This document shows, in pieces, positions 2,228 through 43,806 of a stretch of DNA of 64,000 nucleotides (its first letter is position 1; each line of letters begins with the position of its first letter). The translations under genes and the position numbers were made by a program. The notes beneath the pieces were generated by a model that saw only the letters and a program-made list of their open reading frames with translations, did not search any database and was not told the origin of the DNA. The stretch covers positions 1,749 through 65,748 of the forward strand of contig CAYZRH010000004.1 in NCBI GenBank assembly GCA_964480805.1, in the 5' to 3' direction. The DNA comes from an uncultured Desulfurococcaceae archaeon (GTDB lineage Archaea > Thermoproteota > Thermoprotei_A > Sulfolobales > Desulfurococcaceae).

Positions 2228-2337
2228 ACTATACCCACTAGTTCATAACTTACTCTCTACTAGTTACTTAATCTATAATACATTTGTAACTATATAAGGT
2301 GTTTTCCATAATGTGTTATCTTAGGATAGATGGTGGA

Positions 2338-8638: not shown

Positions 8639-11600
8639 ATGGTTGTGAATAGACCTGCATCTATATTATTACTAATACTCCTACTATTCAACTCGTTTGC
8701 TATAATAACAACACCGTTAACAGCTAGAGCTTCAGCAGTAAATGTTAGCCAAGTAACAGAGTATCATGACATATGGGTATGTGCTCAAGAAGGCTGTATG
8801 CCCAACGCTCCTGGCGATAAAAACCTAACAGCACCCAATGGTGATCTATACGATATAACTCTAGGAAATACTAGTGAACTTATAGTATACTTCAACTTAT
8901 CAGTGCTGTCAGAGGCGGGTATAGACCTAGGTTCAGTATACTTAGCTATTTCACCTGGTTTACCAAAAATAGCATTCTTAACATCAAGAACTAATCCAAA
9001 AACTATATCGTTACTAGTGAATGGATTCTATGACTCTGATCCATACATTAACACAACATTTGTTGAATATGTCTCTATAACTAGAGTGTCAGCAGATTTA
9101 TCAATGGCTAAGATAAAGTTCAAGACATTAAAAGGTATATTTCTCGAAACAGCTGATAGTAGCCCTGGCCCCAACGATAACCCGCCAACTTATGTTGAGG
9201 ATCTATATGGAGTAGGGCTATCCTTTGTAGTTGAGGATATAACGCCAGATAGAGCTGAGAGTGATAACGTATTTACTATGTATGAAGTACCCAATGTTGA
9301 TGCTCAATTACAGTCAACAGACATATCTATAACTGTTACAAATGATGTCATAAAGAAATATCATGATACAATTATTGTAGTTGATTACTCGGTTCTCTTT
9401 GATAAAGTAAATGATTTGCTGAATAGCTATGGACTTGTAGATATTATTGGAACAGTAAACTTAACAAGATCAGATATCTATACTGAAGTATATATGTATA
9501 ATCTATACAACACTAGTGAAAGACACTTACTAGTCTACGGGAACGACCTTGGATGGACTACTGATGGAGGTCCATACTTCTCAACTGTTAGTGCTTACAC
9601 GGATTCCGATGAGAAGATACTGTATGTGGATGCTGATGATTTACTAGATTTCGCTCCTACCGAAATCTCTGCTGAAGAGTACCTTACATCACACTATGGC
9701 TTCTACGTATTTATTAACTTTAGCTATGCCGTACTTAACTGTACATTCTCATTAAATATAACATTTGATCTAGAGGCTGATAGCGCTACAGCTAGTGGTA
9801 CTAAGAAGATCTTGAAGGTTAAGGCTTCTGAGGAAGTTACAGAGATCCCTGATCTATGGGCTGATCCAGCTGAGCTTAATCCTAATGACAACTTAACTAT
9901 CGTGTTACACCATCTACCAGAGGATGCTGATATAACTAAGGTTGTATTGAATAGGAGTGGCTACGTTATTGAGATACCTAAGGATGAACTTACAATAACA
10001 TATCTAGGTGATGGAGACTTTGAAGTGAATCTTACAATACCTGATGGTGAATGGGGCGGTGCTGATACTGAAGTTAAGGTGATAGTTGATACAACACGCT
10101 ATGTTAATGAGCATCCAGACTGTTACGTTGAGTACATAGCTGTTTATCCATACATTATAACCTACATTATAACTAATGAGACAGCTTTCGCTGAAGAGAA
10201 TGCTACTGGCTATAATGCTACATTCATATTTGGTAATAAGACTGCTCCTGGAGACTATGTTATGGTTAAAGGTTTCGGCTTTATAACACCAACTAGTGAA
10301 GGCGAGGAGCTTACAAGTTATGTAAAAGCATTTGTTGACTCAAATAGGATACTAGTACTACATGCTATGGATAAGGGCAACGGATCTATAATTGTGTTGC
10401 TTAAGATGAACTACACAACTGGAGGAGTAGTACCGCCTGGAACCTATACACTAAACATATCTGTTGATCCAGTGCACAACTATGCTACAGCTGGTTTAGA
10501 AGTAGCTATTGAGGACAAGTTGAAGAAGATGTTTATAGACCCCGTACCATTCTATAACGGCACACTATACAAGATCTACCATATCAAACTAACAGATCCA
10601 TTCCAGCTATACTACCCACTAATAGGTAGTGAACCTGGAGACCACTTTGACTGGGCTCATATACCAAGTTGGTTCAACCATTCATTTGAGTTTATAAGCT
10701 TCCCAGATACAAGTGTTGATATAGACTTGCGCAACAAAGACTATAGTATAGACTTCTCATGGCTAACGCTATCGCTAACACATGGATATGGGCTATGGCA
10801 TACTGGTAACGCTCTTGTAGACCAGTACCTACCTTATGGAGACTATACATGGCTTGTTAATGGCGAAGAGCCTAAGGCTATTGATGGTAGGACTATATTC
10901 TATGTACGTATACAGATTGATATAGACTACGACTCGCCAATAACTGATAGAGTTGGCTGCCGTGGACAGAACATTACAATATGTGCTATTGGACTACCGC
11001 CTAATGAGGATGTAAACGTAACCATACAGTATACAGTCTATGCTAATGGTACAAACTACTATAGTATATATCCAGGGTTGACTAGAGAGTATTGGGAAGG
11101 CGAGTTCAATGTAACAATAACTAGTGATGAAAATGGTACTGGCTGTGTAGAATTCAATACAACAGACTACTATCCAACAGACTACGTAACTAATGCTACA
11201 CATGAAGTCGCTATTAAGAAGGGATGGGTTGGTACAAATGTTAAGGAGTACTTATTCTTTGAGTTTAATGCTACAATTACTGGAGTTAGTAATGAGACAG
11301 ACTCATTTGAGTTAAAGACTCATGACACACAGCTAGACTTCTCAATGATATTCCATGTACATATACTATACAACATTACTGTAATAGAGCATGTAACAGT
11401 AACGGTACCACGTGAAAACGCTACAATAACAGTACCAGAAGTACTACTGCCTGGAGACACTGTTACTGTACAAGTGTTCATACACAAGAAGTCGGTCTAC
11501 GACGCCTATGTTGATCCAGCTTCACTACTAGAGATCTCTGATGTAACAATTGATGGATATATGTTCTGGGAGGCATGGGTACGCCTAGTAGACCCATTAA

Positions 11601-14600
11601 CTAATACACCAGTACTAACAGTATATGGAAACTCAACACCAAGTAGTCACCCAGAATGGCTAATAGCAGAAGATGTTGATGGTGATGGCGAGCTAGAGGT
11701 ATGGTGGGCTATACCAGTAGATACTTCACCACTAGGGCTTGTAGGCGTTGATAAAACTTATCGTGTTGATGTAAGGATTAGATGGAGGTTTGCCAACTAT
11801 TCATTAACACCAGAGATTAATGTTAGTGATGAACTATGCCATATCTATATGAACTACACTAGCTTTATACCATTCAATGTATCAGAGACATACTGGTACA
11901 TAGGCGGCGACCACCAGCTTGTAACAATACTTGGTATACTAGAGTGGAAACTTGACAAGATAATTAACGATACTGTATGGCTTAAAGCTAAAGTTAATGA
12001 TACTTACAACTACCTAACAATCAATATAACACAGTTCCTAGAATACATCAACAACACCGTTGTAGAGATACGTGGAGATGTAGCCATTATAAAGGCTGAT
12101 GTAGCTATCATTAAAGCCAATGTATCAACACTAATAGATCTTGCTAGAGAAGCACATGTAAAGCTAGACCTCATACTAGGTAATCTAACAGTTATAGAGT
12201 ATAAGATCGAGAATGTCAATGAGACCATACACCTAAGGCTAGATGAGATTAATGCAACTCTAGAAGAGATTCTATGGTGGCTACAGGATATCAAGTATGA
12301 ACTAGAAGCATACTATGCAGAACTTGAGTGGAAGCTTGACGAGATCAATGAGACACTACATGTTATGAATGATACCTTACTCTGGAAGCTAGACGCTATT
12401 AACGAGAGCATTACGCTACGCATTATTATGGCTAAAGAACAGCTTGAAGAACTTATAAAGGCTGTTAATGAAACCATATTCCGTAGACTTGATAGATTAG
12501 AAGGATCTATTGAAGCATATATTGATGATAAGGTAGTCTATATTGAAGGATTACTGCATGAGGTAGTACATAATATTACAACAAATGTAACAATAGAGAT
12601 ACACAATGCTAGAGACGAGGTAATTACTAAACTAGAAGACATACTAACTAACCTAACAATACAGTTAACAACGCTAAAGAACGATCTAAACGCTAGCATA
12701 ACCTATTACGGAGACACACTCATAGCTAAGATAGAATCAACTAATACATCACTACACCTAGTTATTAGAGAATGTTGTATGAACCTCACCAACCTGATAA
12801 AAGCTGTTAACACAACAATCCTAGACAGACTAGACGATATGGAGAGCAGTCTAGAAGCCTATATAGACATGAAAGCGTACGAACTAGAGATCTGTATAAC
12901 AGATGCAGCTAACGATGTTAAAGAGAACATAACTATAGAGATTGGTGAAGCTAAAGACGATATCCTTAAAGCTATTGAGGACATGTTGACACGTATAACA
13001 AGTAGACTAGACATGCTTGAAGAACACATAAACGCTAGTATAGAGATTGCTAAAGATGAGACAATACTATTCATAAATGATAGCAAGAACGCTATAATAG
13101 CACGTATAGACAGCTGTTGTACAGAACTTAAAGACCTTATCATAACAAAGGCAAGCGATATCCTGGCTAGACTAGATGTATTAGAAGCTAATGTTGTTGC
13201 TAACATAACTGCTGCTAAGAACGATCTAGATATATTGATTAGAACTGTTAACTCAACACTATATGCTAAGATAGAGGATGAAGCAGACCGTATAGTAGGT
13301 ATACTAAACAATGTCTACACCAGCCTATCAGACAAGCTAGACAATGTCAACGCCAGCATATCAGCTCTAATAACATACTATGGAGACATGCTAGAGCTTA
13401 AACTAGACTACATCAACACTACACTACATGGGGTTAACGCTACACTGTACTTCAAGATAGAGTCTGCTACAGCCAGTATACTAAACGCTATAAACAACAT
13501 GCATACAGACCTATTGAATAAGCTGTATGAACTAGGCAATAACCTAACAGTACTCATAAACGATAGATCGGCTGAGATAAAGGTGCTTGTAGAGAACAAG
13601 GCTTCAGAAATAGTGTCTAACCTGTCACTAAAGATTGATGATGCGTCAAACAATATAATTAGTGAACTCAAGGCATTCGTATCAGCAAAGATCTCTGAAG
13701 TAATTGGAAATATAACGGATCTAAAGGAGAATGTATCAATAACCATCAAGGCCTACGCAGATATGTTTGAAGCTAAACTAGACAGTATTAACAGCACCAT
13801 ACACGTTAAATTAGATAACTACTACACAGCATTAAGAGACCTCTTAATAGCTATAAACACCAGCATCTTTAACAGACTTGATGAGCTTGAAACTGACTTA
13901 ACACTACTTGTTAACGAGAAGACAGCTTATCTTGAAGGAGTAATATATAATGTAAGAGACGAGATACTAACTAACTTAACCATAGAGATACATGATGCTA
14001 GAGAAGACATAGTATCAGAGCTAACAAGCTATGCTACACAGATCCTTAACAGAATAGACCTTGCTGAATCTAATGTTGTTGCTAACATAACATCCTATGG
14101 TGATAGAATAGTAGCTGATATAGCTTCAGCTAATGCTACCATACACTTAAAGATTGAAGAGTGTTGTACAGAGCTCAAGGACCTTATAACAACAAAGGCT
14201 AGTGATATACTAACTAGAATAGCTGAGCTACAGGACAATGTAACAATAACTATTAAGACTTATGCTGACATGTTTGAAGCTAAGATTGATAGTGTTAACA
14301 GTACAATACATCTAAAGCTTGACAACTACTATAGTGCACTAATGAGCTTCCTAACATCTATGAATGCAAGCTTGTTCAGTAGACTTGATGAACTAGAAAC
14401 CGATCTAACGCTACTCATTAATGAGAAGACAGCATATCTTGAAGGAGTAATATATAATGTAAGAGACGAGATACTAACTAATGTAACAATAGAGTTAACT
14501 AATGCTAAGGAGGAGATACTAGCAGCACTAGAGGCATCAACACTAGCTATACTAGCTAGACTTGACGAGCTTGAATCTAATGTTATAGCTAACATAACAT

Positions 14601-15658
14601 ACTATGCTGGAGTACTAGAAGCAGATATTATAAGCACTAATATATCACTACATGCTAAACTAGATGCGTACTATGTATCACTTGTAGACCTACTACTAGC
14701 TATTAATGAGAGCATATTCAGCAGACTTGATGAACTAGAAGGCAACCTAGTGGCATTTATTGAATACGAGACTTCAAGACTAGAGGGAGACCTATACGAT
14801 GTTGAAGACAACATAATCTATGAATTAACAATAGAGATTGATAATGCTCGTGAAGAACTATCATCACTAATAACCACTGAGAGTATGGCTATACAGTCAC
14901 TCATTACACTAAAAGCTGATGAGCTAAAGGCGTTTGTGAATGAGAGTAGATTAGAGATTCTAGCATCAATCAATGATGCTAAATTAACAATCTTAACTAG
15001 ACTAGACCATCTAGAAATAGTACTTAACGACACCCGTGCAACGATAATGACAGAGCTATTTAGTATAGAGACAACGCTAGACAACATAATAGACTTAATC
15101 AACACAGCAGCTGATGAACTAGGTGTTAAAGTTGACAGCTTATCAGAATTTGTTGGAGACGTTAACGAGTCAATATATGGACTAGTACTAACTGTTGGTG
15201 ACAACATCAAGGTAACAATTACTGGTAAAGCGGATGATATAATGAACCTTGTAAGTAGCTCAAGCGATGAACTAAAGAGTCTTATTGGCGAGAAAGCAAG
15301 CGATCTAGAATCACTTGTTGGAGATAAGTTTAGTGACTTATCAGATCTAGTAACTAGCAAGACTGATGAACTAAGTTCAGCCCTAGACACTGCTAAGAGC
15401 GATCTAGAGACATTAATAACAGATAAGTTTAGTGAGCTATCAGGTAAACTAGATGATACAAAGACTGCTTTAAGTAGTGATATATCAAGTGCACAGACAA
15501 GTCTAAGCAGTAGATTAGATGAGAAATCAGACGACGTATCACAGAAAGTAGACTCTGTAGACAGTAAGTTAGTAACCTACAGCCTTGTAACACTAATACT
15601 ACTAGTCGTTGTCATTGGACTAGTAGGATATAGTGTAATAGCATTTAGAAGAGGCTAA
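8639..15658 (+). CDS. giant (2339 aa) N-glycosylated surface protein: signal peptide, beta-rich head, ~1200-aa coiled-coil stalk, C-terminal TM anchor (tetrabrachion-like architecture)
   Basis: N-terminal signal-like MVVNRPASILLLILLLFNSFAIITTPLTARA. Dozens of N-x-S/T sequons. From about nt 11940 the sequence is a continuous heptad-like helical repeat (LEWKLDKIINDT..., RLDELETDLTLL...). C-terminal hydrophobic anchor LVTYSLVTLILLVVVIGLVGYSVIAF followed by RRG. Confidence 0.85.
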   Translation: MVVNRPASILLLILLLFNSFAIITTPLTARASAVNVSQVTEYHDIWVCAQEGCMPNAPGDKNLTAPNGDLYDITLGNTSELIVYFNLSVLSEAGIDLGSVYLAISPGLPKIAFLTSRTNPKTISLLVNGFYDSDPYINTTFVEYVSITRVSADLSMAKIKFKTLKGIFLETADSSPGPNDNPPTYVEDLYGVGLSFVVEDITPDRAESDNVFTMYEVPNVDAQLQSTDISITVTNDVIKKYHDTIIVVDYSVLFDKVNDLLNSYGLVDIIGTVNLTRSDIYTEVYMYNLYNTSERHLLVYGNDLGWTTDGGPYFSTVSAYTDSDEKILYVDADDLLDFAPTEISAEEYLTSHYGFYVFINFSYAVLNCTFSLNITFDLEADSATASGTKKILKVKASEEVTEIPDLWADPAELNPNDNLTIVLHHLPEDADITKVVLNRSGYVIEIPKDELTITYLGDGDFEVNLTIPDGEWGGADTEVKVIVDTTRYVNEHPDCYVEYIAVYPYIITYIITNETAFAEENATGYNATFIFGNKTAPGDYVMVKGFGFITPTSEGEELTSYVKAFVDSNRILVLHAMDKGNGSIIVLLKMNYTTGGVVPPGTYTLNISVDPVHNYATAGLEVAIEDKLKKMFIDPVPFYNGTLYKIYHIKLTDPFQLYYPLIGSEPGDHFDWAHIPSWFNHSFEFISFPDTSVDIDLRNKDYSIDFSWLTLSLTHGYGLWHTGNALVDQYLPYGDYTWLVNGEEPKAIDGRTIFYVRIQIDIDYDSPITDRVGCRGQNITICAIGLPPNEDVNVTIQYTVYANGTNYYSIYPGLTREYWEGEFNVTITSDENGTGCVEFNTTDYYPTDYVTNATHEVAIKKGWVGTNVKEYLFFEFNATITGVSNETDSFELKTHDTQLDFSMIFHVHILYNITVIEHVTVTVPRENATITVPEVLLPGDTVTVQVFIHKKSVYDAYVDPASLLEISDVTIDGYMFWEAWVRLVDPLTNTPVLTVYGNSTPSSHPEWLIAEDVDGDGELEVWWAIPVDTSPLGLVGVDKTYRVDVRIRWRFANYSLTPEINVSDELCHIYMNYTSFIPFNVSETYWYIGGDHQLVTILGILEWKLDKIINDTVWLKAKVNDTYNYLTINITQFLEYINNTVVEIRGDVAIIKADVAIIKANVSTLIDLAREAHVKLDLILGNLTVIEYKIENVNETIHLRLDEINATLEEILWWLQDIKYELEAYYAELEWKLDEINETLHVMNDTLLWKLDAINESITLRIIMAKEQLEELIKAVNETIFRRLDRLEGSIEAYIDDKVVYIEGLLHEVVHNITTNVTIEIHNARDEVITKLEDILTNLTIQLTTLKNDLNASITYYGDTLIAKIESTNTSLHLVIRECCMNLTNLIKAVNTTILDRLDDMESSLEAYIDMKAYELEICITDAANDVKENITIEIGEAKDDILKAIEDMLTRITSRLDMLEEHINASIEIAKDETILFINDSKNAIIARIDSCCTELKDLIITKASDILARLDVLEANVVANITAAKNDLDILIRTVNSTLYAKIEDEADRIVGILNNVYTSLSDKLDNVNASISALITYYGDMLELKLDYINTTLHGVNATLYFKIESATASILNAINNMHTDLLNKLYELGNNLTVLINDRSAEIKVLVENKASEIVSNLSLKIDDASNNIISELKAFVSAKISEVIGNITDLKENVSITIKAYADMFEAKLDSINSTIHVKLDNYYTALRDLLIAINTSIFNRLDELETDLTLLVNEKTAYLEGVIYNVRDEILTNLTIEIHDAREDIVSELTSYATQILNRIDLAESNVVANITSYGDRIVADIASANATIHLKIEECCTELKDLITTKASDILTRIAELQDNVTITIKTYADMFEAKIDSVNSTIHLKLDNYYSALMSFLTSMNASLFSRLDELETDLTLLINEKTAYLEGVIYNVRDEILTNVTIELTNAKEEILAALEASTLAILARLDELESNVIANITYYAGVLEADIISTNISLHAKLDAYYVSLVDLLLAINESIFSRLDELEGNLVAFIEYETSRLEGDLYDVEDNIIYELTIEIDNAREELSSLITTESMAIQSLITLKADELKAFVNESRLEILASINDAKLTILTRLDHLEIVLNDTRATIMTELFSIETTLDNIIDLINTAADELGVKVDSLSEFVGDVNESIYGLVLTVGDNIKVTITGKADDIMNLVSSSSDELKSLIGEKASDLESLVGDKFSDLSDLVTSKTDELSSALDTAKSDLETLITDKFSELSGKLDDTKTALSSDISSAQTSLSSRLDEKSDDVSQKVDSVDSKLVTYSLVTLILLVVVIGLVGYSVIAFRRG
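13741..14754 (+). repeat. two tandem ~507-nt (169-codon) units inside the stalk-coding region; older degenerate copies extend upstream to ~12300
   Basis: TIKAYADMFEAKLDSINSTIHVKLDNYY...EKTAYLEGVIYNVRDEILTNLTIE (from 13741) matches TIKTYADMFEAKIDSVNSTIHLKLDNYY...EKTAYLEGVIYNVRDEILTNVTIE (from ~14248). An identical 47-nt run tatcttgaaggagtaatatataatgtaagagacgagatactaactaa occurs at 13928 and 14435. Confidence 0.85.
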
Positions 15659-15697: not shown

Positions 15698-15792
15698 AAT
15701 TCCTTCTCTTCATCAATATGGTTAGCTAGTGTGGTTTAAAACTTTTTTAATAAACAACCTTATTTAAGCACGTTCTCTAGTAAATAGGGAGG

Positions 15793-16197
15793 TTGTTGAA
15801 GGCTGTATCAAGCTATCTATCGCTAGTGGTAGCACTACTGGTTATAACAATGGTTTCAACAGCATCTATTATAGCTATTAATAGTATGGAGCGTACTATT
15901 CAGAAGTCTATAAAGGATGTTGGTAGAGAGGCTATTGTATATAGGAGGGTATGTCTTAAGAATAGTTCTATAGTAGTTATAAAGTTGTTAGAAAATACTA
16001 TAATTCAAGACATAGTTGTTGTTGATCAAGTTAATAACAGTTTATCTAGACTAAGTAGTAGAGACCTATCTATAAATACTTCATGTAGATTCCTTGATAG
16101 AGAACTACAGTGTAGTGTAGGGGATCTAGTGGTTATTATAGTGCCTAGAGACTACAGAGTTTTACTAATAACTAATAGAGGTGTCTATATTGTCTAG
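15793..16197 (+). CDS. small N-terminally anchored secreted/membrane protein (possible pilin-like class III signal)
   Basis: 134-aa ORF, TTG start after GGGAGG. N-terminus MLKAVSSYLSLVVALLVITMVSTASIIAI (short charged n-region, K-A, then a ~22-aa hydrophobic helix). Overlaps the next gene by 17 nt. Confidence 0.55.
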   Translation: MLKAVSSYLSLVVALLVITMVSTASIIAINSMERTIQKSIKDVGREAIVYRRVCLKNSSIVVIKLLENTIIQDIVVVDQVNNSLSRLSSRDLSINTSCRFLDRELQCSVGDLVVIIVPRDYRVLLITNRGVYIV

Positions 16198-18307
16198 AGC
16201 ATTAACAAGTTATCCACTAGCAATTACAGCTATAGTATCTATCATAGCTGTACTAACGGTCTCTCTAACAATACTAGATACAATGTTTAGAGTATCTAGA
16301 GAAGTAGTTAGTATTAAGGGTAACTCCTTTATAGAAGACATAGACTACACGATATATAAGGAGGATCTCTACATACTATCTAGCTCTAATAAAATATACT
16401 ATGAGATAATACTCTATCCAAACAATACAATAGAGACTATAGCTCTAAACACAACACCCTACTCTAAAGGCTTTCTCCACGGACCGGTTAAGATACCATG
16501 TAACCCTAGTGCATCTATAGCTGTAGTTGATGGAGAGAGTTTGGAAGTCGTTGATGTAATAGAGACTATGGATATAGCAAGTAACCTAGTATATAGTAGC
16601 AATAGTGTGAAACCACCAAGTCTATACATGAATATTTTAGAAAATAATCTAGAAACAATAGACCAGTTTGTTAAAGGTTCATACGTGTTTCAAGAGTATA
16701 GACCATTTAAAGACAATGTATTTACAACTTATTTAGAACCTGGAACTAGCTATCTAATAGACTTTAACGGTGTCATCTATAGAGATGGATATGTAAAACC
16801 TATACCCTTACTAAATGATACAATAGAGATTAACTATGAAATGTTTAGTGAGAATGTTAGTAGAATACTTAGTAATGGTTCAAGGGTTTATGGTAGATAC
16901 AGTGTTCTATACAACATATCTCTAAACACACGATTAGTTGACAACAAGACTATAGGCTTTGAAAGCTTTAGTGATACAGGGTGGGCTATACCAGGTACAT
17001 TATATAGAGTTGTTGAGGAACACACTATATACAATGGTTTAGTACAACACTATGGATTATACTCCCTACTATATGATCTAAACCATACAATAGACTATAT
17101 ACTCATACACGGTTTTAAAACAGGGAAGCTATATTGTGTACCCTTAAACGTGACATATAGTATAGAGTTACTTAATCAAACAAGTGTTATAGAAGTAGAG
17201 AACTGGACTATAGAGATAAACTCTTCACTAATACCCACCTTCCCTCTATACAGGGAGAGATTGAACAAGTCTATAGATGCTATACTATCCACTGGTAATG
17301 AAGCAATCCTGAAACTAGAGGTCACATACGACATACCCATACCTTATGTAAGTGATATATTTTACATAAACATTTCAGCACACATAAATGATCCTTTAAA
17401 AGAAGGCTCTGTAGAGATGATATATGGTGGGCTAGTAAGGCTTAAACTAGATAATAGTAGTCTAATAGATTATAGATTATACTCTAATAGTAGTATCATA
17501 GTGAATTCTACAATAGAATACCCTAGTCCTAACTATACACTATCTATAATAATAAGTGGTTCTAGTAGACAAGACCTCCTATATAATGGTTCTATATTAT
17601 TAGATGTTCTAGGAATGGGTGATATTAATAGAGTAGAGTATATGTCTCCTGATATAATTCTAGAACCTGAGCCATTTCTAGTTATAAACAGTATTATAAG
17701 TGTTAATGGATATAGTATAGTATATGGCAACATATCAGATAATACTATATGGATATACTCTGAAGACTCTAGAGTGTATATAAACTATACAATACCACCA
17801 GCTATACGTCTTAACAATACATACATCTCTGTAGATGATGTAGCCTATATTCTTAGTGATATAGCTAGTAACATTAGTACTGTAGTTGTTGGAGACAAGG
17901 TATTCCACGGATCTAGCGTCTATGTACAGAACATGTATTGTTTAGAAGAAACTGTTTTTAGAGAACCAGTTCTAGTGGTTGAAACAAGTGTTCCTATAGA
18001 AGTGGTTGTAGAACATATAGATGGCTCTATAGTTGAAAGTGTTTTCTATAGAAGTGGTTCTCTAGAGTTAGAGGATAAACTAGTTTCTAGAATAAGTGTT
18101 TATTTAGTAAATAATGTTTCAATAATCTACCGTAGTTGTAGAGTAGGGAAGTTCTTCATATACTATAATGGTGGGTTAGAGGTAGGTGTTTTAGATAATA
18201 GTATAGTGTATGTTATGGGTTATCCAGTAGCTAGGATAGTTTTTAAAGACATAGAGGTTTATACCATACTTTCACCCATCTCTCTCCTACTTAAAAACCC
18301 TCCATGA
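16181..18307 (+). CDS. large N-terminally anchored, sequon-rich extracellular protein
   Basis: 708-aa ORF. N-terminus MSILSRALTSYPLAITAIVSIIAVLTVSLTIL shares the (K/R)-A-x-(S/T)-S-Y-x-L motif with the upstream 134-aa protein. Many N-x-S/T sites. No family recognised. Confidence 0.6.
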   Translation: MSILSRALTSYPLAITAIVSIIAVLTVSLTILDTMFRVSREVVSIKGNSFIEDIDYTIYKEDLYILSSSNKIYYEIILYPNNTIETIALNTTPYSKGFLHGPVKIPCNPSASIAVVDGESLEVVDVIETMDIASNLVYSSNSVKPPSLYMNILENNLETIDQFVKGSYVFQEYRPFKDNVFTTYLEPGTSYLIDFNGVIYRDGYVKPIPLLNDTIEINYEMFSENVSRILSNGSRVYGRYSVLYNISLNTRLVDNKTIGFESFSDTGWAIPGTLYRVVEEHTIYNGLVQHYGLYSLLYDLNHTIDYILIHGFKTGKLYCVPLNVTYSIELLNQTSVIEVENWTIEINSSLIPTFPLYRERLNKSIDAILSTGNEAILKLEVTYDIPIPYVSDIFYINISAHINDPLKEGSVEMIYGGLVRLKLDNSSLIDYRLYSNSSIIVNSTIEYPSPNYTLSIIISGSSRQDLLYNGSILLDVLGMGDINRVEYMSPDIILEPEPFLVINSIISVNGYSIVYGNISDNTIWIYSEDSRVYINYTIPPAIRLNNTYISVDDVAYILSDIASNISTVVVGDKVFHGSSVYVQNMYCLEETVFREPVLVVETSVPIEVVVEHIDGSIVESVFYRSGSLELEDKLVSRISVYLVNNVSIIYRSCRVGKFFIYYNGGLEVGVLDNSIVYVMGYPVARIVFKDIEVYTILSPISLLLKNPP

Positions 18308-18322
18308 TAACGGGTGTAGTCT

Positions 18323-18589
18323 GTGACTGATGTAGTAGAGTTTATTCAACAAATAATACTTGATGTAACGATAATAGCGTGGGTAATGTTCTTCCTAACA
18401 TGGGTTATAGGGTGGGCTCTAAAAGGCTCACCAATACCATTCCTTAGGGTAAAGCGTGCAGGACAGAGGTTTATAGAGGATGCTGTATGGGCTGCATTCT
18501 GGCTTGCTATGGGTAGTACAGTGTTTGCTTTAATAGCCTATATTGCTACACAATTCCAGCAACCATTCCCTGAACCACCAACGATCTAG
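18323..18589 (+). CDS. 88-aa two-helix hairpin membrane protein; candidate VirB2/CedA1-type (conjugative-type) pilin
   Basis: Helix 1 IILDVTIIAWVMFFLTWVIGWAL, basic loop KGSPIPFLRVKRAGQRF, helix 2 AVWAAFWLAMGSTVFALIAYIATQF. Sits directly upstream of the polytopic protein. Size and topology match VirB2-like pilins. Confidence 0.55.
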   Translation: MTDVVEFIQQIILDVTIIAWVMFFLTWVIGWALKGSPIPFLRVKRAGQRFIEDAVWAAFWLAMGSTVFALIAYIATQFQQPFPEPPTI

Positions 18590-18616
18590 GGCTAGCCGGA
18601 GGGCTGTGGTGATGTT

Positions 18617-20026
18617 ATGGAGTATGAGTTCCTACTTACTGCTTTCTACTTGTCAGTACTCTCATACTATCTAGGTACACTATTCTATATGATACCGCTA
18701 CCATTCTACTCTATTAAGAAGTGGGCTCCAACACTAATGGTTGACGGCGTTTTTTCTGCTACACTAGTATTTACATACACAATCATACTAGCTTTAATAG
18801 ACTATATTGGAGGGGTACTGGGTAGTAACTGGACATCATTCTATCTATGGATTGGATTTAAAACAGGTATTGTAGCTACACTATTGACAATACTACGTAT
18901 TATAGGTATGACGCTCTCTATGAGTGGTCTACAGTTTCTAGCAAACAGTATAATATCATCACTTATATCAATACTAACATATGTAATACTATCACTACTT
19001 ATCATAACAGTAGTTGCAATGATTATAACAAGCTATGGAGCAAGACTACTAGCACTAGGTATACTACTGCATGCAGTACCATTTCGTCTTACAAGAGCTA
19101 GTGGAGCAATGATGATCTCTATAGTCATTGTATTCTCTATAGGTCTACCGTTAATGCCTGCTTTTGTAGAATATGTTTCAGCACCACTTATAGTGCCCGG
19201 GCTAGTTGTTACAGACTATGGGTTAGCATATGTTGTTGTAAACATAACTGATACAGTAGGTAACAGTATACCATACACCTTGTTTGAAGCATATCGTCTA
19301 GATAACAATAGATTACTGGCTAGATACATAGGTAGTAGAGAGGGATACATAGATACGTGTGATCCAGATAAGGGGTTGCCAAGTAGTAGAAGCTATGGAG
19401 TAGTTGTAGAAGTTGGTGGAGCTAGACTAGTTGATACAGTTAATCCAGTAGAGGACTATAAACAGTTAAACAACACAGTCTATAGACTAGATCTTAGATA
19501 CAATAAGCTATTATCAATAGGTGTTACTAGGTTCATATACTTAAACAACTCTATACTAAAATCACTGACAATTAGCCAAAACCACTACACACTAGAACTA
19601 GATGTAGACCAGGAGACAGCTATCTATATAGTAGTACAGACAAGTGATACGGTAACAGTGTATATTGATGGCTATGGAAGGAGTCCTGATAGAACAGACT
19701 ACTATACATGGTATGGTGTAGAACTATACTCTCATACATACACACTAGATACTGGAAGCCATGTAGTTGACTTATACATAGTCTATGGTGATACAGAGAC
19801 ACCGGAAATAGATGAAGTCTACTACCTACGTGATGTAGCAAATATTACACTAACAAGGCCTATAACACTGATAAACCCAATAGCATACCTTATATTCAAC
19901 CTCCTTATAGCACCACTAGCCTATATAGCAATACTATTCTCAACATCATACGCACTTGCTAGACTACTTGGCGGTACACGCCCTAGTATCCTATACGCAG
20001 TCACTATGGGGAGGAGGATTGGGTAA
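18617..20026 (+). CDS. polytopic membrane protein with large extracellular domain; candidate CedA/VirB6-like channel component
   Basis: 469 aa. About 6 hydrophobic helices in the first 190 aa. A ~220-aa soluble, sequon-bearing domain follows (NITDTVGN..., NNTVYRL...). Final TM LIFNLLIAPLAYIAILFSTSYAL. Confidence 0.5.
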   Translation: MEYEFLLTAFYLSVLSYYLGTLFYMIPLPFYSIKKWAPTLMVDGVFSATLVFTYTIILALIDYIGGVLGSNWTSFYLWIGFKTGIVATLLTILRIIGMTLSMSGLQFLANSIISSLISILTYVILSLLIITVVAMIITSYGARLLALGILLHAVPFRLTRASGAMMISIVIVFSIGLPLMPAFVEYVSAPLIVPGLVVTDYGLAYVVVNITDTVGNSIPYTLFEAYRLDNNRLLARYIGSREGYIDTCDPDKGLPSSRSYGVVVEVGGARLVDTVNPVEDYKQLNNTVYRLDLRYNKLLSIGVTRFIYLNNSILKSLTISQNHYTLELDVDQETAIYIVVQTSDTVTVYIDGYGRSPDRTDYYTWYGVELYSHTYTLDTGSHVVDLYIVYGDTETPEIDEVYYLRDVANITLTRPITLINPIAYLIFNLLIAPLAYIAILFSTSYALARLLGGTRPSILYAVTMGRRIG

Positions 20027-20193
20027 TGGATAGAGTTGAGAAGATAATATGGGTTATGATAGCTATAATAGCAGTTGTATCAATAGTTTCATCACCTAAA
20101 CCACTAACTATAATCCTAAACACGTTGTTCATAACCATCATAGTCACACTAAGGCTTGTCTTAAATAGAGTTGGTGAGAGATATGAAGTTTAA
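20026..20193 (+). CDS. unlisted 55-aa two-TM hairpin protein (CedA2/VirB3-position)
   Basis: Manual translation: MDRVEKIIWVMIAIIAVVSIVSSPKPLTIILNTLFITIIVTLRLVLNRVGERYEV. The ATG overlaps the upstream stop (TAATG). Its stop at 20191-20193 overlaps the ATPase ATG at 20183 by 11 nt. Below the ORF-track size cutoff. Confidence 0.55.
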   Translation: MDRVEKIIWVMIAIIAVVSIVSSPKPLTIILNTLFITIIVTLRLVLNRVGERYEV

Positions 20194-21853
20194 GAACATA
20201 CTAAAAGCTTTTCTAGGAGACAGTCTAGACTATGAGATAGCTGATGGAGTTCTCATACTATCCTATAGAGGTAGGTTTCACGGTATAAAATACTTGGTTG
20301 CAGATGAGGTAGACTACGGGTTTAAAGACCTTGATCAAAGGACTGTGTATAGACTAGTTGAGTCGTATACAAGCATATATTCTAGACTACCAGTTGGTAG
20401 TGAGCTTAAGATTGTTAAACTAAGGTTTAATAAGAAGAAGTTTACCCGCCGTATAGAGAATGAGATGGTTAATATAAAAGCTGTATTAGAGACTACTAAA
20501 GAACCACATCTTATTAAGAAGTTTGAGAGAAGACTAGGTATTCTAGAGAGACTATATCATAAGATTATTAGTTTAGAAGATATTGAGAGAATACAGCTTA
20601 TAGTTAAGATACATGGAGAGTCTAGTAGTAGAGAGAACTTGTTAGAGAATCTTGAAACACTAGCTGATATGGTTAAAAACTTATTCCATATAACATACGG
20701 GGTTGAGCTAAGGTGTGCTAGAAGGAATGAGGTTAGAAGGATTATAGAGTATGAGCTTGGTCTTACAAGTAGAGAACTAGGTATAGGTAGAGCAATAGTT
20801 GTTGAAGGTAAGAGGATAGCAACAATACAGCCAATACCATATACTAAAAAGCCTAGACTTGAGGAGATGGATGGTGTATACCTTGGATACGATATAGAGA
20901 CTGGATGGCCTGTTGTAATAGATAGAGATGCACTGTATAAACACTTGCTTATCGTAGGCCCTACTGGTAGAGGTAAGACTGTCACACTAGCTAGTATTAT
21001 TGAAAACCTTATAGCACTTGGAGGTGTTGATGTTATTGGTATAGATTTTAAAGGGGATCTTGTAGAGCTTCTTCAAAATGATCTACTATGTATAGTTGGT
21101 CCAGAGAGTCTTCCATTAAATATTCTTGTAAGACCAGACTATATACCACGTGTTGACTGGGTTTTAGTTGTTAATGAGCTTCTTAACAAGGTTCTTGGTG
21201 TTGATTCTAGGAGGGTTTCTTCAATACTGAACGTTGTTGTTGATGAGGATAGGGTTTTAGAGTATATTGATCCTGAGAAGCTTTTACTAGATAAAGACTT
21301 GTCTATACTAGCTAATGTTATAGAGATTGTTAGTAAGAAGCCTGATTATAATAGGTTTTTAAAGCTTATTGATAGCGGTAACACAGTCTTCAACCTACAT
21401 GGTTATGGGGTTGCTTACCAAAACCTCTATGGCGGACTAGTATTGTCTATAGTATCGTATCTTGTATCTACTAGTAAGTTGTTTAATAGAGTAGTAGTTG
21501 TTGATGAAGCATGGAGGGTTATGGGGATTAAGACACTTTATACACTAGTTAAGGAGGGTAGGAGCCGCCGTGTAGGCGTTGTTCTTGCTACACAGAATAT
21601 TGAGGATGTTCCTCCAGAAGTCCTTGATAATATTCATACAGTTATAGCCTTTGGATCATATAGTGATAGCTATATTGGTAAACTTAGAGAACTACTAGGG
21701 CTTAGAGATACGTATGTTGAAAAGCTTAAGAGAATGGGTGTTGGAGAAGCAGTCATGATTACTTCAATGGATAGCCATCCAGTATATGTGAGAATAGAGC
21801 CTCCTACAAAGCTTGAGGATAAGATTAAACAAGGTGTTGTACGTATAGTATAG
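20183..21853 (+). CDS. VirB4/TrbE/CedB-like secretion ATPase
   Basis: ORF 20171..21853; first ATG at 20183 (MKFKNILKAF). Walker A LIVGPTGRGKTV. Walker B RVVVVDEAWRVMG (the DEAW form characteristic of VirB4/TrbE, versus DEAH in HerA). GVVLATQNIEDVP. N-terminal ~250-aa non-ATPase domain as in VirB4. Confidence 0.7.
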   Translation: MKFKNILKAFLGDSLDYEIADGVLILSYRGRFHGIKYLVADEVDYGFKDLDQRTVYRLVESYTSIYSRLPVGSELKIVKLRFNKKKFTRRIENEMVNIKAVLETTKEPHLIKKFERRLGILERLYHKIISLEDIERIQLIVKIHGESSSRENLLENLETLADMVKNLFHITYGVELRCARRNEVRRIIEYELGLTSRELGIGRAIVVEGKRIATIQPIPYTKKPRLEEMDGVYLGYDIETGWPVVIDRDALYKHLLIVGPTGRGKTVTLASIIENLIALGGVDVIGIDFKGDLVELLQNDLLCIVGPESLPLNILVRPDYIPRVDWVLVVNELLNKVLGVDSRRVSSILNVVVDEDRVLEYIDPEKLLLDKDLSILANVIEIVSKKPDYNRFLKLIDSGNTVFNLHGYGVAYQNLYGGLVLSIVSYLVSTSKLFNRVVVVDEAWRVMGIKTLYTLVKEGRSRRVGVVLATQNIEDVPPEVLDNIHTVIAFGSYSDSYIGKLRELLGLRDTYVEKLKRMGVGEAVMITSMDSHPVYVRIEPPTKLEDKIKQGVVRIV

Positions 21854-26881: not shown

Positions 26882-27811
26882 ATGATTGATAAGGATGATC
26901 CGGTGGTTAAGAAGGTATACGAGATCTATGGACTAGCTATTGAAGAGTCTAAACCAGTTAGGAATCCAGAGCTTATGATAAGGTTTTTAAGAGAAAAATA
27001 TAGGCTACTAGTAAAACCACGTATAGTATACTTAACAATAGCTGCATTCCTAAACAATAGACCAGTATTATTCGAGGGACCGCCAGGTACTGGTAAAACA
27101 GAGATTGGTGAAGCAATACTAACTCTATGGGCTGGCAAGACAGCATTCATATTACCATGTAGTGAAAACTATGATGAATACCGTGTTATAGGAGACTTCC
27201 ACCCCGTAATGGCTATAAGTAAGGGTTTTAATGAGGAAAGCTTTATACCAAGGCCATTGCTTGCAGCATTGATTTTGGATGCTGGCATACTTATTGACGA
27301 GGTACGTAGGAGTAGTGAGGAGTTCCAAAACCTTCTTCTAGATATTATTGATAAGAGACGTATTATTGTTCCAGAACTTAAGAAGGTTTATAGACAGAAG
27401 GGTATTGGTTTCCAAGTCATACTAACTAGTAACCCAGAGGATATAGCACAGAATGAACTTAGTGATGCTTTTCTAAGACGTGTTGTTAGGATAAAGTTTA
27501 GTTATCCAAGTATAGAAGAGGAGTTGGAGATTCTGAAGCTAAGGCTTAGAGACAACCTAGACTATATACCAAAACCACTAGTTAAGAAAATGCTTAATGT
27601 AGTCAATGTTTTAAGAACTAAGACAGTATATAAGCCAGGTCCATCAGACACTGTTTCATGGGGTATACTTGCTGTTAAAATAGCTATGTCTCGTGGTGAT
27701 AATAGAGCATCTATAGATGACCTAGTTAGTTCTGGTGAAGCAGTCCTTATTAAGAATGTTGAGGATGAAGAAGTTGTTAGAGAAATACTCTATAGAGAGT
27801 TTAAGAAGTAG
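26882..27811 (+). CDS. MoxR-like AAA+ ATPase
   Basis: 309 aa. Walker A LFEGPPGTGKTEIGEAI, Walker B GILIDEVRRSSEEFQNLLLDII, then LTSNPED...DAFLRRV. This is the single-AAA MoxR/RavA-type layout. Confidence 0.8.
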   Translation: MIDKDDPVVKKVYEIYGLAIEESKPVRNPELMIRFLREKYRLLVKPRIVYLTIAAFLNNRPVLFEGPPGTGKTEIGEAILTLWAGKTAFILPCSENYDEYRVIGDFHPVMAISKGFNEESFIPRPLLAALILDAGILIDEVRRSSEEFQNLLLDIIDKRRIIVPELKKVYRQKGIGFQVILTSNPEDIAQNELSDAFLRRVVRIKFSYPSIEEELEILKLRLRDNLDYIPKPLVKKMLNVVNVLRTKTVYKPGPSDTVSWGILAVKIAMSRGDNRASIDDLVSSGEAVLIKNVEDEEVVREILYREFKK

Positions 27812-29702
27812 GTCAGAGCATATAGTTTTCTCACTAGTAAATGCTCTCTATAAACTAGGTTATAGAATACCTATTTCACAGACTATAGACTTTATTAAAA
27901 TCCTTGAAACATACATGGTTTTGAAACATTATGCTGAACCATCATATCCGGAGATTATTGAATTAGCTGAATCAGTATTTACAACAATAAATTGGAGTCC
28001 AAAACTTAAACAAGAACTACTAGATCTTTTGGAGAGAAAACGTGTGAGGCTGGAAAGTGGTTTAAGCCAGAAAATAGTATCTAGGATTAGGTTTGGTAGA
28101 GAAGTAAATGTTAGAGAGATACTCTCTGGTAGACTGTGTAAGAGTGATATTGAGACATATATTGTTATGAGGAAACTAGGTATTATACACCGCATTAGAT
28201 CTGGTAAGTATAGAGCTGTTAAATATAATGAATATAGAAGAACTATTAAGAAACATAGAGACTATAGTATTAGTGCAAGTGACATTATTAAATACCTTGA
28301 TGAAATACCTATGGGCTATTGGAGTATGCTTCTATCTCAAGATGTTATAGATAAAGCTAGTTATAAAACGCTCTTTAAACTAGCTGAAGAACTGGTTAAA
28401 ACGGATAATGAGAGGCTTAAGAAACTGGTTCTTAACAGACTGTCACATGACATAAGCTCTACTACTAAACTTAGTTCTAGAGAGAGGAGAGTTCTTCAAA
28501 ACTTGTTAAGAACAACTAATTATAGTGATTTAAGGCTTTCTCTTAAAGCATATAGAGATGTTAGTAGGGATCTTATAGATAGGTATGGTTTAAGGGATCT
28601 TATTAAAGAAGTTAAGTCGTTAAGTATTAGTGAGAGAAGGAGAGTATTAAGTAAACTTGTAAAGTATTTAAATAAGAATGAGTTAGAGCAAGTTGTTAAT
28701 GAAGTAGATATACTATCTTTTACTAGAATACCTAGATTAGATAAGACTTTATCAACAATATATAAATTAGCGAATGCTCTTACCAGCTTTATTGATTATA
28801 AACTGACACAGAATCCTTCATTTCTAGACTATAGTCTCTATTATTTAAAGGATATTGATGCTAACACTATTCCTCTAAAATACAGGCCTTTATATGAAAG
28901 CCTTATCCATAGAGATCTTAGGACTATGGTCAATAAGCTATCTATAGTTGAACTACACAGCCTTGTAGAGTATGTTATTGGTAGAACTGTTGAGTTAAGG
29001 AATCTAGGTTATAGTGATGAAGTACTAGCTAATGCTCTAACACTTAGTATGAGAGTTCTTAGAAACATAGTTGGTAGACATGGTGGTTTCCTTGTTGAGA
29101 AGAGGAAGACTATGGTTCACCGTGGACGTGTTGAGGTTAAAGATAGTCTATACCATTTTGTTAGACATAACTATAGCCTTGTCTATACTTATAGAGTTAG
29201 AAAACCATCTATTGTAGCATTACTTGATGTTAGTGGCTCTATGAGAAACTACTCTCTATGGGCTATAACAACACTAGCTTCTATAATATATCGTGTTAGA
29301 CTAGCTATAGTGTTTTCTGATAAGTGTGAAGTTATAAGGTTTACAAAGTATCCTATAAGACTACTACATAGGTTTCTTAAAACAATATTGATGAGTAGGT
29401 TTAATGGCTATACTGATATAGACTCTGCTCTAACAGAAGCCTTGAGGTATATTAGAAGTGGTGATGTAGTTGTACTTATAAGCGATCTTAAACAGACTGT
29501 TAAGGGTGACCCCGTACAGAAGATTAAGAGGGTTGTTGATAGAGGTACTAGGTTTATAGCTATAACACCTAAGCACTATAGTGTAGATCTCGCTAATGCT
29601 ATTAGAGAACTTAGTGGAGAAGTTATAGTATCTAGTTCACCACTAGAAATACCTTATATACTTAGGAAAAAGCTAAACTTAAAAATAGGTATACGGATTT
29701 GA
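27735..29702 (+). CDS. von Willebrand factor A (VWA/MIDAS) domain protein with long helical N-terminal region
   Basis: C-terminal VWA: IVALLDVSGSMRNY (DxSxS), GYTDIDSAL, VVVLISDLKQ. Start is uncertain (GTG 27735, ATG 27756 or 27765). Every option overlaps the MoxR stop at 27811, suggesting coupling. Confidence 0.75.
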   Translation: MKQSLLRMLRMKKLLEKYSIESLRSRSEHIVFSLVNALYKLGYRIPISQTIDFIKILETYMVLKHYAEPSYPEIIELAESVFTTINWSPKLKQELLDLLERKRVRLESGLSQKIVSRIRFGREVNVREILSGRLCKSDIETYIVMRKLGIIHRIRSGKYRAVKYNEYRRTIKKHRDYSISASDIIKYLDEIPMGYWSMLLSQDVIDKASYKTLFKLAEELVKTDNERLKKLVLNRLSHDISSTTKLSSRERRVLQNLLRTTNYSDLRLSLKAYRDVSRDLIDRYGLRDLIKEVKSLSISERRRVLSKLVKYLNKNELEQVVNEVDILSFTRIPRLDKTLSTIYKLANALTSFIDYKLTQNPSFLDYSLYYLKDIDANTIPLKYRPLYESLIHRDLRTMVNKLSIVELHSLVEYVIGRTVELRNLGYSDEVLANALTLSMRVLRNIVGRHGGFLVEKRKTMVHRGRVEVKDSLYHFVRHNYSLVYTYRVRKPSIVALLDVSGSMRNYSLWAITTLASIIYRVRLAIVFSDKCEVIRFTKYPIRLLHRFLKTILMSRFNGYTDIDSALTEALRYIRSGDVVVLISDLKQTVKGDPVQKIKRVVDRGTRFIAITPKHYSVDLANAIRELSGEVIVSSSPLEIPYILRKKLNLKIGIRI

Positions 29703-43698: not shown

Positions 43699-43784
43699 GC
43701 CGGGGTGCCCGAGTGGACTAAGGGGCTGGCCTTGAGAGCCAGTGGGTCTCACGGCCCGCGCGGGTTCGAATCCCGCCCCCGGCG
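43699..43784 (+). tRNA. tRNA-Ser (anticodon UGA), class II with long variable arm, no intron, CCA not encoded
   Basis: Acceptor GCCGGGG/CCCCGGC with discriminator G. Anticodon stem CTGGC/GCCAG, loop CTTGAGA (UGA). 17-nt variable arm with 5-bp stem. T-arm GCGGG-TTCGAAT-CCCGC. A GC-rich island in AT-rich DNA. Confidence 0.9.
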
Positions 43785-43806
43785 CTATAGTTGTGTATAT
43801 GTTATT

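Follow-up and report, generated by a model that had tools for sequence, protein, structure and literature searches.

A Ced-type DNA import locus in an uncultured Desulfurococcaceae archaeon and the surface-protein genes in front of it

Members of the Thermoproteota exchange chromosomal DNA by means of the Ced system, a chromosomally domesticated relative of type IV secretion systems (T4SS) (PMC9905601; PMC11868833; PMC11823120). The locus described here lies in a stretch of 64,000 nucleotides (nt), referred to as the window, on contig CAYZRH010000004.1 of an uncultured Desulfurococcaceae archaeon (assembly GCA_964480805.1). Six co-directional open reading frames (ORFs) are packed on its plus strand between positions 15793 and 21853, which raises the question of what system they encode and whether all six belong to it. 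A sequence-only reading had described them as one operon with a complete T4SS-like core and two extra glycoprotein genes at its head, and had flagged several of its features as undescribed. According to our analysis, genes three to six (18323-21853) are the Ced system of the Desulfurococcaceae, with a predicted promoter of their own and with the small protein p55 as the most likely membrane tether of the ATPase CedB, while the two leading genes, p134 and p708, do not belong to the core; to this reading as a whole we give a probability of about 0.8. The locus is therefore a fresh example of the described Ced system in its usual Desulfurococcales layout, with a core that is nothing new in kind. 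Of the features flagged as undescribed, the contiguity of the core and the extended CedA are usual in the clade, and p134 and p708 cannot be shown to belong to Ced.

The Ced core and its chromosomal setting

The six ORFs, their junctions and the Walker motifs were all as claimed when the coordinates were re-derived, and the topologies predicted earlier for the 88-, 55- and 469-aa (amino acid) proteins agree with hydropathy. The junctions are -17 nt between p134 and p708, +15 between p708 and cedA1, +27 between cedA1 and cedA, -1 between cedA and p55 (TAATG) and, with CedB starting at ATG 20183, -11 between p55 and cedB.

The 88-aa product of the third gene (18323-18589, plus strand) is, by homology, the VirB2-type CedA1 pilin of Ced. 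With 126.5 bits it exceeds the curated threshold of 100 bits for the NCBIfam family Ced_CedA1 (NF041797; E 3.1e-37, model positions 1-74 of 75), and its residues 2-75 match chain B of PDB 8DFU, in which the CedA1 pilus of Aeropyrum pernix was solved by cryo-EM (E 5.6e-24), with approximately 57% identity to the solved pilin over the aligned positions. Hydropathy indicates two hydrophobic helices flanking the basic loop KGSPIPFLRVKRAGQR. The similarity to VirB2-type pilins that had been proposed for this protein is therefore borne out.

The 469-aa protein that follows (18617-20026, plus strand) is assigned as the CedA/VirB6-type polytopic channel, with a predicted external domain before its last helix. 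Its best NCBIfam family is CedA (E 4.2e-38, residues 3-190), ahead of the paralogue CedE (E 5e-29), and hydropathy gives about six N-terminal helices, a hydrophilic stretch of approximately 210 aa (about 206-415) for which no family match was found, and one C-terminal helix, which corresponds in alignment to the terminal part of the CedE model. The large external domain noted by the sequence-only reading is thus present. It is no novelty, as the protein is 450-500 aa long in 77 of 77 distinct loci, a size common to the clade, and relatives as a rule have a large external domain. In all 77 loci cedA lies next to cedA1.

CedB (20183-21853, plus strand) is a 556-aa protein when read from ATG 20183, and in this form it is present, identical, in public data (P0001; Logan contig L001); an alternative start at 20171 gives 560 aa. 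Among the NCBIfam families the best match is CedB (E 9.7e-31), followed by CedD (1.3e-11), HerA (2.6e-5) and FtsK (0.13). The Walker A motif is GPTGRGKT and the Walker B motif VVVDEAW, and in 38 CedB homologues the DxAWR residues are invariant and the E nearly so. When the sequence was searched against the PDB, only weak matches at the level of the Walker A motif were found. An AlphaFold model built from these 38 sequences (predicted local distance difference test, pLDDT, 82.5) had R388 TrwK/VirB4 as its top three Foldseek matches in the PDB (E 1e-18 to 3e-17), above HerA. Sequence and model together identify the ATPase as CedB/VirB4-type, not HerA or FtsK, as had been suggested. No N-terminal hydrophobic segment was found in it by hydropathy, and the alignment to the CedB model begins at position 61-62; some CedBs have been reported to have no N-terminal membrane segment.

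The core genes were found together well beyond the window. When one genome per species was scanned with a CedA1 alignment, 80 loci were retrieved, among them loci of Desulfurococcaceae, Pyrodictiaceae, Acidilobaceae, Caldisphaera and Thermodiscus, and when the window proteins were searched against them, cedB was adjacent to cedA in 58 of the 67 distinct loci with enough sequence. The presence of ced genes in Desulfurococcales and Acidilobales has been described before, and cedA and cedB are reportedly adjacent in these orders. The contiguity of the core, once thought undescribed, is the normal arrangement outside Sulfolobaceae. The block cedA1-cedA-(small ORF)-cedB is placed between a 3'-phosphoadenosine 5'-phosphosulphate (PAPS) reductase or Lhr helicase gene on one side and an RNA methyltransferase gene and the L3-L4-L23-L2 ribosomal-protein operon on the other, an arrangement shared by dozens of metagenome-assembled genomes (MAGs) and the complete chromosome of Thermogladius. 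In Thermogladius sp. KZ2Tp1 the order is Lhr, PAPS reductase (minus strand), cedA1 (87 aa), cedA (453 aa), a 52-aa ORF, the ATPase gene (546 aa), the RNA methyltransferase gene and L3-L4-L23-L2, as in the window. This fixed synteny, together with the match to the Ced families and the absence of homologues on PLSDB plasmids, agrees with the earlier proposal of a chromosomal, domesticated conjugation-like apparatus.

A second ATPase gene lies 13.6 kb upstream of the cluster (323-2227, minus strand). Its 634-aa product, a membrane ATPase, has CedD as its best NCBIfam family (83.8 bits, E 1e-23), ahead of the VirB4-type models, with a polytopic N-terminal domain of approximately 230 aa by hydropathy and the motifs GASGTGKS (Walker A) and VVDEAHH (Walker B). 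In Sulfolobales, import depends on CedD, which has been proposed to be an analogue of VirD4. It had been stated that no relaxase, integrase or coupling protein lies within the operon; this holds inside the cluster, although a CedD-like ATPase is encoded nearby. The gene is divergently paired with that of an Lhr-type DEAD/DEAH helicase (2299-5178, plus strand; Pfam DEAD, Helicase_C, WH_Lhr and DEAD_assoc), which is regarded here as context only. A CedD-like homologue was found 5' of cedA1 in 17 of the 48 loci with enough flank, and the order CedD-like (minus), Lhr (plus), PAPS reductase (minus), cedA1 is repeated in many Desulfurococcales and Pyrodictiaceae MAGs.

Some further features of the surroundings were noted. 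Between the Lhr and PAPS reductase genes the window carries a gene for a 370-aa archaeal ATPase (PF01637; 5286-6398, plus strand) with an MCM-type winged-helix C-terminus, which had no counterpart in 85 related loci and looks like an insertion specific to the window. Genes for a MoxR-type AAA_5 ATPase and a VWA (CoxE-like) protein (26882-29702, plus strand) interrupt the ribosomal-protein run between L2 and S19, as they do in Thermogladius and other relatives. The sole RNA gene in the window by ARAGORN and Rfam is a tRNA-Ser(TGA) at 43699-43785 (plus strand). In one related MAG (contig CAZCAU010000002.1, 71.9 kb) both ends of the contig are identical loci of 15,976 nt in opposite orientation (L045 and L046), a terminal inverted duplication that is probably an assembly artefact.

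A predicted promoter for cedA1 and the p55 hairpin

In Sulfolobus, Orc1-2 binds a DNA damage-responsive element (DDRE) with the core ANTTTC and the consensus AATAGTTTCRGWDTACTCWS, on which the induction of cedA1, upsA, upsE and tfb3 depends; the site in the S. islandicus cedA1 promoter was experimentally defined, and the motif before cedA1 in the loci compared here matches it. A comparable arrangement is predicted in the window at 18267-18298 (plus strand), where the DDRE-type sequence TACTTTCA (18267-18274), which contains ANTTTC, is followed by the TATA-like sequence CTTAAAAAC (18290-18298), both within the final 14 codons of p708. Of 76 distinct loci, 40 carry an element of the form AATA[G/C]TTTC[G/A] 51-64 nt 5' of cedA1, compared with a background of 5.7% of random windows, and in relatives a TATA-like box follows it by approximately 17 nt. 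The loci bearing the element are from several families (Desulfurococcaceae, Pyrodictiaceae and Acidilobaceae MAGs), and the consensus is AATAGTTTCGCC... here and AATAGTTTCRGW... in the published work. The position of the promoter inside the 3' end of p708 would explain why the C-terminal peptide (I/L)LSPxSxL(L/I)KNP is among the few conserved stretches of p708. The element did not exceed background before the CedD-like, Lhr, cedA, cedB and L3 genes, and upstream of p134 its occurrence was inconsistent among loci. A second strict match, AATAGTTTCA (20084-20092), lies inside p55, 99 nt before the cedB start, and is probably due to chance because it is kept in only 4 of 32 relatives.

The p134 gene may have a promoter of its own as well. 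The spacer of 134 nt that separates it from the preceding gene, which encodes a giant surface protein, contains T-tracts that could terminate the transcript of that gene, and the TATA-like box TTATTTAAG (15760-15768, plus strand), with a putative promoter function, approximately 30 nt 5' of the p134 start. As cedA1 has its own predicted promoter within p708, the six-gene cluster probably consists of two transcription units. The description as a six-gene operon is therefore retained for the packing and common direction of the genes and revised for their transcription. Most likely, the ced core keeps its ancestral promoter and p134 and p708 were inserted upstream of it.

Between cedA and cedB lies a 55-aa ORF (p55; 20026-20193, plus strand) for a two-helix membrane hairpin, with two hydrophobic helices by hydropathy and a basic C-terminal tail. 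The ORF did not arise by chance, because a two-helix ORF of 48-69 aa recurs at the same position in 41 of 61 distinct related loci and is annotated as a gene in public assemblies. The gene is translationally coupled on both sides, by the TAATG with cedA and by the 11-nt overlap with cedB. The presence of the small ORF was complementary to that of an N-terminal helix on CedB: in 35 loci the ORF is present and the helix absent, and in 17 the ORF is absent and the helix present (Fisher p = 1.4e-7 over all loci, not corrected for phylogeny). VirB3 and VirB4 show the same alternation between a separate small hairpin and a helix on the ATPase.

The family of small proteins shares a short polar turn and the basic tail, and this charge pattern suggests that both ends are cytoplasmic, the opposite of the CedA1 topology. 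No Pfam or NCBIfam match was found for p55, and a profile of 20 of the small proteins did not detect VirB3 in the PDB, their length being too short for a fair test. Since VirB3 next to VirB4 has this look, our best guess, by analogy, is that p55 would be a VirB3-like tether of CedB at the position of CedA2. The VirB3-like character that had been proposed for the 55-aa protein is consistent with its architecture and distribution; homology to VirB3/TrwM was undetected in the profile search.

The surface-protein genes upstream of cedA1

The presence of a giant protein gene directly 5' of the cluster (8639-15658, plus strand), as had been pointed out, is real. The 2339-aa product has a tetrabrachion-like stalk architecture: a Sec signal, a head of approximately 1100 aa, a coiled coil of approximately 1200 aa with matches to the coiled-coil families Apolipoprotein and Baculo_PEP_C, and a C-terminal membrane anchor, with 84 sequons in total. 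Internally repeated segments were observed within the coiled coil. No match was found when the protein was searched against the PDB. Its homologues are 1010-2339 aa long, and the identity of only 46% with the closest relative indicates fast divergence.

Both leading genes of the cluster encode proteins of similar appearance. The 134-aa product of p134 (15793-16197, plus strand) is small and N-terminally anchored, and its N-terminus M(L)KA/VSSYLS (the slash follows position -1) resembles a class III, or prepilin-type, signal; in the rest of the family the motif is looser, with A, Q, S, C or G at position -1. The 708-aa product of p708 (16181-18307, plus strand) is N-terminally anchored and mostly beta, contains 24 sequons and belongs to a family in which the class III-like motif [KR][GA]/[LVM][TS]xYP[LV] is kept in 10 of 10 members (RA/LTSYP, KG/LTSYP). 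The density of sequons per 1000 aa is 36 in the giant protein, 34 in p708 and 22 in p134, compared with 0-6 in cytoplasmic neighbours, from which we infer that the surface proteins are glycosylated.

Relatives of these two proteins are few. No Pfam, NCBIfam or PDB relative of either was found by sequence and profile searches, including no pilin Pfam match. An exhaustive search of 1.84 billion representative proteins returned 7 homologues of p708, a word-indexed search that started from one sequence and from a 10-member profile found two proteins only, and a metagenome scan with a 4-member alignment returned six loci, all of close relatives. In one of the related loci (L091, 9977-11721) the p708 homologue is in two fragments, and may be a pseudogene. 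Paralogy of p134 and p708 is not claimed, as the hhalign probability of 33% between p134 and the N-terminus of p708 is too weak. Both proteins evolve rapidly: compared with the closest MAG, identity is 95% for CedA1, 81% for L3, 80% for the CedA helices, 73% for CedB and 55% for the CedA insert, and falls to 46% for the giant protein, 36% for p134 and 35% for p708.

The distribution of p134 and p708 follows the giant gene. About 10 of 67 loci and a further six metagenomic contigs carry them 5' of cedA1, always behind the gene of a giant C-terminally anchored coiled-coil protein, and in the majority of ced loci the whole trio is missing. L024, L023 and L033 have the giant gene but neither p134 nor p708, and in L024 (5357-5602) and L023 it is directly followed by cedA1. 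The sequences indicate that the L024 lineage lost p134 and p708 secondarily, because its relationship to the window is just as close as that of lineages with both genes. The two genes that lead the cluster are thus present and glycoprotein-like, as originally proposed, yet as parts of the system they could not be upheld, being found in about 10 of 67 loci and tracking the giant gene. They appear to encode fast-evolving anchored surface proteins that form, with the giant stalk protein, a lineage-specific module of presumed surface function, and they are not demonstrable parts of Ced.

Competing readings and relation to known systems

How closely p134 and p708 are bound to Ced can be judged in more than one way. 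If all six genes, perhaps with the giant gene, formed one unit, p134 and p708 could be an adhesin or recognition module of Ced that joins mating cells across the stalked S-layer and replaces the Ups pili, which have been reported to be absent from this lineage. This would account for their position directly 5' of cedA1, on the same strand, in lineages as distant as Desulfurococcaceae and Pyrodictiaceae MAGs, the junctions of -17 and +15 nt, N-termini that are class III-like as in the Ups pilins, including the large UpsC, a rapid evolution compatible with species-specific recognition, and an ANTTT[CT] element approximately 50 nt before p134 in some relatives. However, both genes are missing from approximately 85% of ced loci, that of the cultured Thermogladius included, the L024 lineage dropped them and kept ced and the giant gene, and cedA1 still has its own predicted promoter, with no clear DDRE before p134 in the window. 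They never occur without the giant gene and so track the surface protein rather than ced, and no pilus assembly ATPase, platform protein or prepilin peptidase was found among the scanned neighbouring genes. We consider a single unit of this kind unlikely. A version in which the giant protein, p134 and p708 were acquired in one Desulfurococcales lineage as a contact module for Ced in the role of the Ups pili, the damage promoter now lies inside p708 and p55 is the missing VirB3 seems to us quite improbable; if true, a surface module would be doing the job of the Sulfolobales Ups pili, making contact for species-specific DNA exchange. The opposite possibility, that p134 and p708 are surface layer (S-layer)-associated partners of the giant stalk, unrelated to Ced and adjacent to it by accident, comes close to even odds in our estimation. 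It fits their strict co-occurrence with the giant gene, which can occur without them, their matching sequon density, the extra subunits known from Thermoproteota S-layers and the majority of ced loci without the trio. Accidental placement does not sit well with 16 of 16 trio loci being immediately 5' of cedA1, a count that includes the search from the p708 side, which reached close relatives only, and the giant protein is only a putative S-layer protein of these organisms.

Alternatives also exist for p55 and for the cluster as a whole. As p55 and the CedA2 of Sulfolobus share a position directly 3' of cedA and a two-helix architecture, p55 could be a CedA2 orthologue and thereby a second VirB2-like pilin or pilus-associated subunit, and in 6 loci the small ORF is found together with a helix-bearing CedB, as in Sulfolobus. 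We regard this as doubtful, since the charge distribution of p55 suggests a topology opposite to that of CedA1, the gene shares an overlap and translational coupling with cedB, p55 and the CedB helix largely exclude each other among the loci and CedA2 has been reported to be unconserved outside Sulfolobales. That the cluster is the remnant of an integrated conjugative element or plasmid transferring itself is extremely improbable. The VirB2, VirB6 and VirB4 types of the core are T4SS-like, and the ATPase has weak matches to TraD/TraG-type domains, but the locus occupies the same chromosomal spot by the ribosomal-protein operon across families, neither an integrase nor a relaxase was found in the cluster or its flanks, no tRNA gene was found near the ced locus by ARAGORN and Rfam, GC content is even across the region and no ced homologues were found on PLSDB plasmids. 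On the grounds of fixed synteny and the absence of PLSDB plasmid homologues and of a nearby tRNA, the mobile-element reading was rejected.

The assignment of genes three to six to Ced, with a separate promoter and p55 as tether, has points to answer as well. CedA scores 131 bits against an equivalog cut-off of 330, its divergence and the 210-aa insert depressing the score, and CedB scores 107 bits against 700; the NCBIfam cut-offs for both are tuned to Sulfolobales, and as both proteins fall below them their orthology rests on best-hit rank and synteny. In the Foldseek comparison, the gap between VirB4 and HerA (1.6e-16) is only about two orders of magnitude. For p708, the AlphaFold model built from three sequences (pLDDT 35) was unusable. 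The tether role of p55 has exceptions in the 6 loci with both the small ORF and the CedB helix and in 3 loci with neither; helix-bearing CedBs have one helix, not two; and an in-silico fusion of p55 to CedB raised the CedB-model score by 3.7 bits only, which is undecisive. The DDRE of the window departs from the Sulfolobus consensus after TTTC, and A. pernix produced Ced pili without ultraviolet treatment. Short junctions and Shine-Dalgarno-like motifs would also permit read-through from the p134 promoter and co-transcription of all six genes.

Compared with the Ced systems of Sulfolobales and A. pernix, the window has in common the CedA1 pilin, the CedA and CedB families, a nearby CedD-like ATPase and the chromosomal location, and with S. 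islandicus the ANTTTC damage element before cedA1. In Sulfolobus, however, cedB is distal whereas here it is adjacent, CedB has the N-terminal membrane helix that is missing here, where a separate 55-aa hairpin precedes it, and CedD is without the polytopic domain of approximately 230 aa. The CedA model of Sulfolobales covers 259 positions without the external insert, and CedA, CedB and CedD of the window all score well below the cut-offs tuned to that order. The differences from Sulfolobus Ced are all common to many Desulfurococcales MAGs. Ted of the Thermoproteales (TedC, TedA, TedB and TedD) is likewise a domesticated T4SS-like set of pilin, VirB6-like and VirB4-like proteins, clustered with DNA-repair helicases, for which the nearby Lhr helicase is the counterpart in the window; TedC, on the other hand, carries a Sec signal that is cleaved off and does not resemble CedA1 in sequence, whereas the pilin of the window is clearly of the Ced type.

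The minimal inner-membrane core of bacterial T4SS (VirB2, VirB3, VirB4 and VirB6; TrwL, TrwM, TrwK and TrwI in R388) resembles the window in the TrwK/VirB4 fold match, the two-helix hairpin pilin and the small two-helix protein before a VirB4-type ATPase, elsewhere replaced by a helix on the ATPase. It differs in that the system of the window is without VirB1, B5, B7-B11, VirD4 and relaxase, and in that Ced is thought to import, not export, DNA. With the Ups pili of Sulfolobales, through which cells aggregate ahead of Ced transfer, p708 and p134 share class III-like N-termini, and p708 is large and sequon-rich like UpsC, but they have no sequence similarity to the Ups proteins and no UpsE/UpsF-type genes are nearby. 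The giant protein resembles tetrabrachion, the S-layer protein of Staphylothermus marinus, in that a single polypeptide, predicted to be glycosylated, unites a beta-rich head, a coiled-coil stalk of great length and a membrane anchor at the C-terminus. At 2339 aa, compared with 1524 aa, it is about one and a half times the length of tetrabrachion and has a much longer stalk; no match to the PDB fragments of tetrabrachion was found, and its role in an S-layer is putative.

Under the reading of genes three to six as Ced, the ced unit would be transcribed from its own promoter with a Sulfolobus-type damage element, so that damage-responsive expression is probable. CedA1 would polymerise into a VirB2-like, lipid-containing pilus, and CedA would act as a VirB6-like membrane channel or assembly platform, with its inserted external domain reaching into the wide space beneath the stalked S-layer. 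CedB would be a VirB4-like hexameric motor without a membrane helix of its own, and the co-translated p55 hairpin would hold it at the membrane as VirB3 does for VirB4. The CedD-like membrane ATPase would be a second part of the motor, probably completing it. The module of p134, p708 and the giant gene would have been inserted just upstream of cedA1, with a likely role at the cell surface.

The shared neighbourhood of the CedD-like, Lhr and cedA1 genes ties the importer to a second motor and to a repair helicase, of which the Lhr link is context only. A hairpin gene that alternates with the CedB helix is a testable candidate for a VirB3-like subunit, and p134 and p708 are candidates for cell-cell recognition. 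The occurrence of a damage element before cedA1 beyond the Sulfolobales suggests that the Orc1-2 circuit controls DNA exchange well outside that order.

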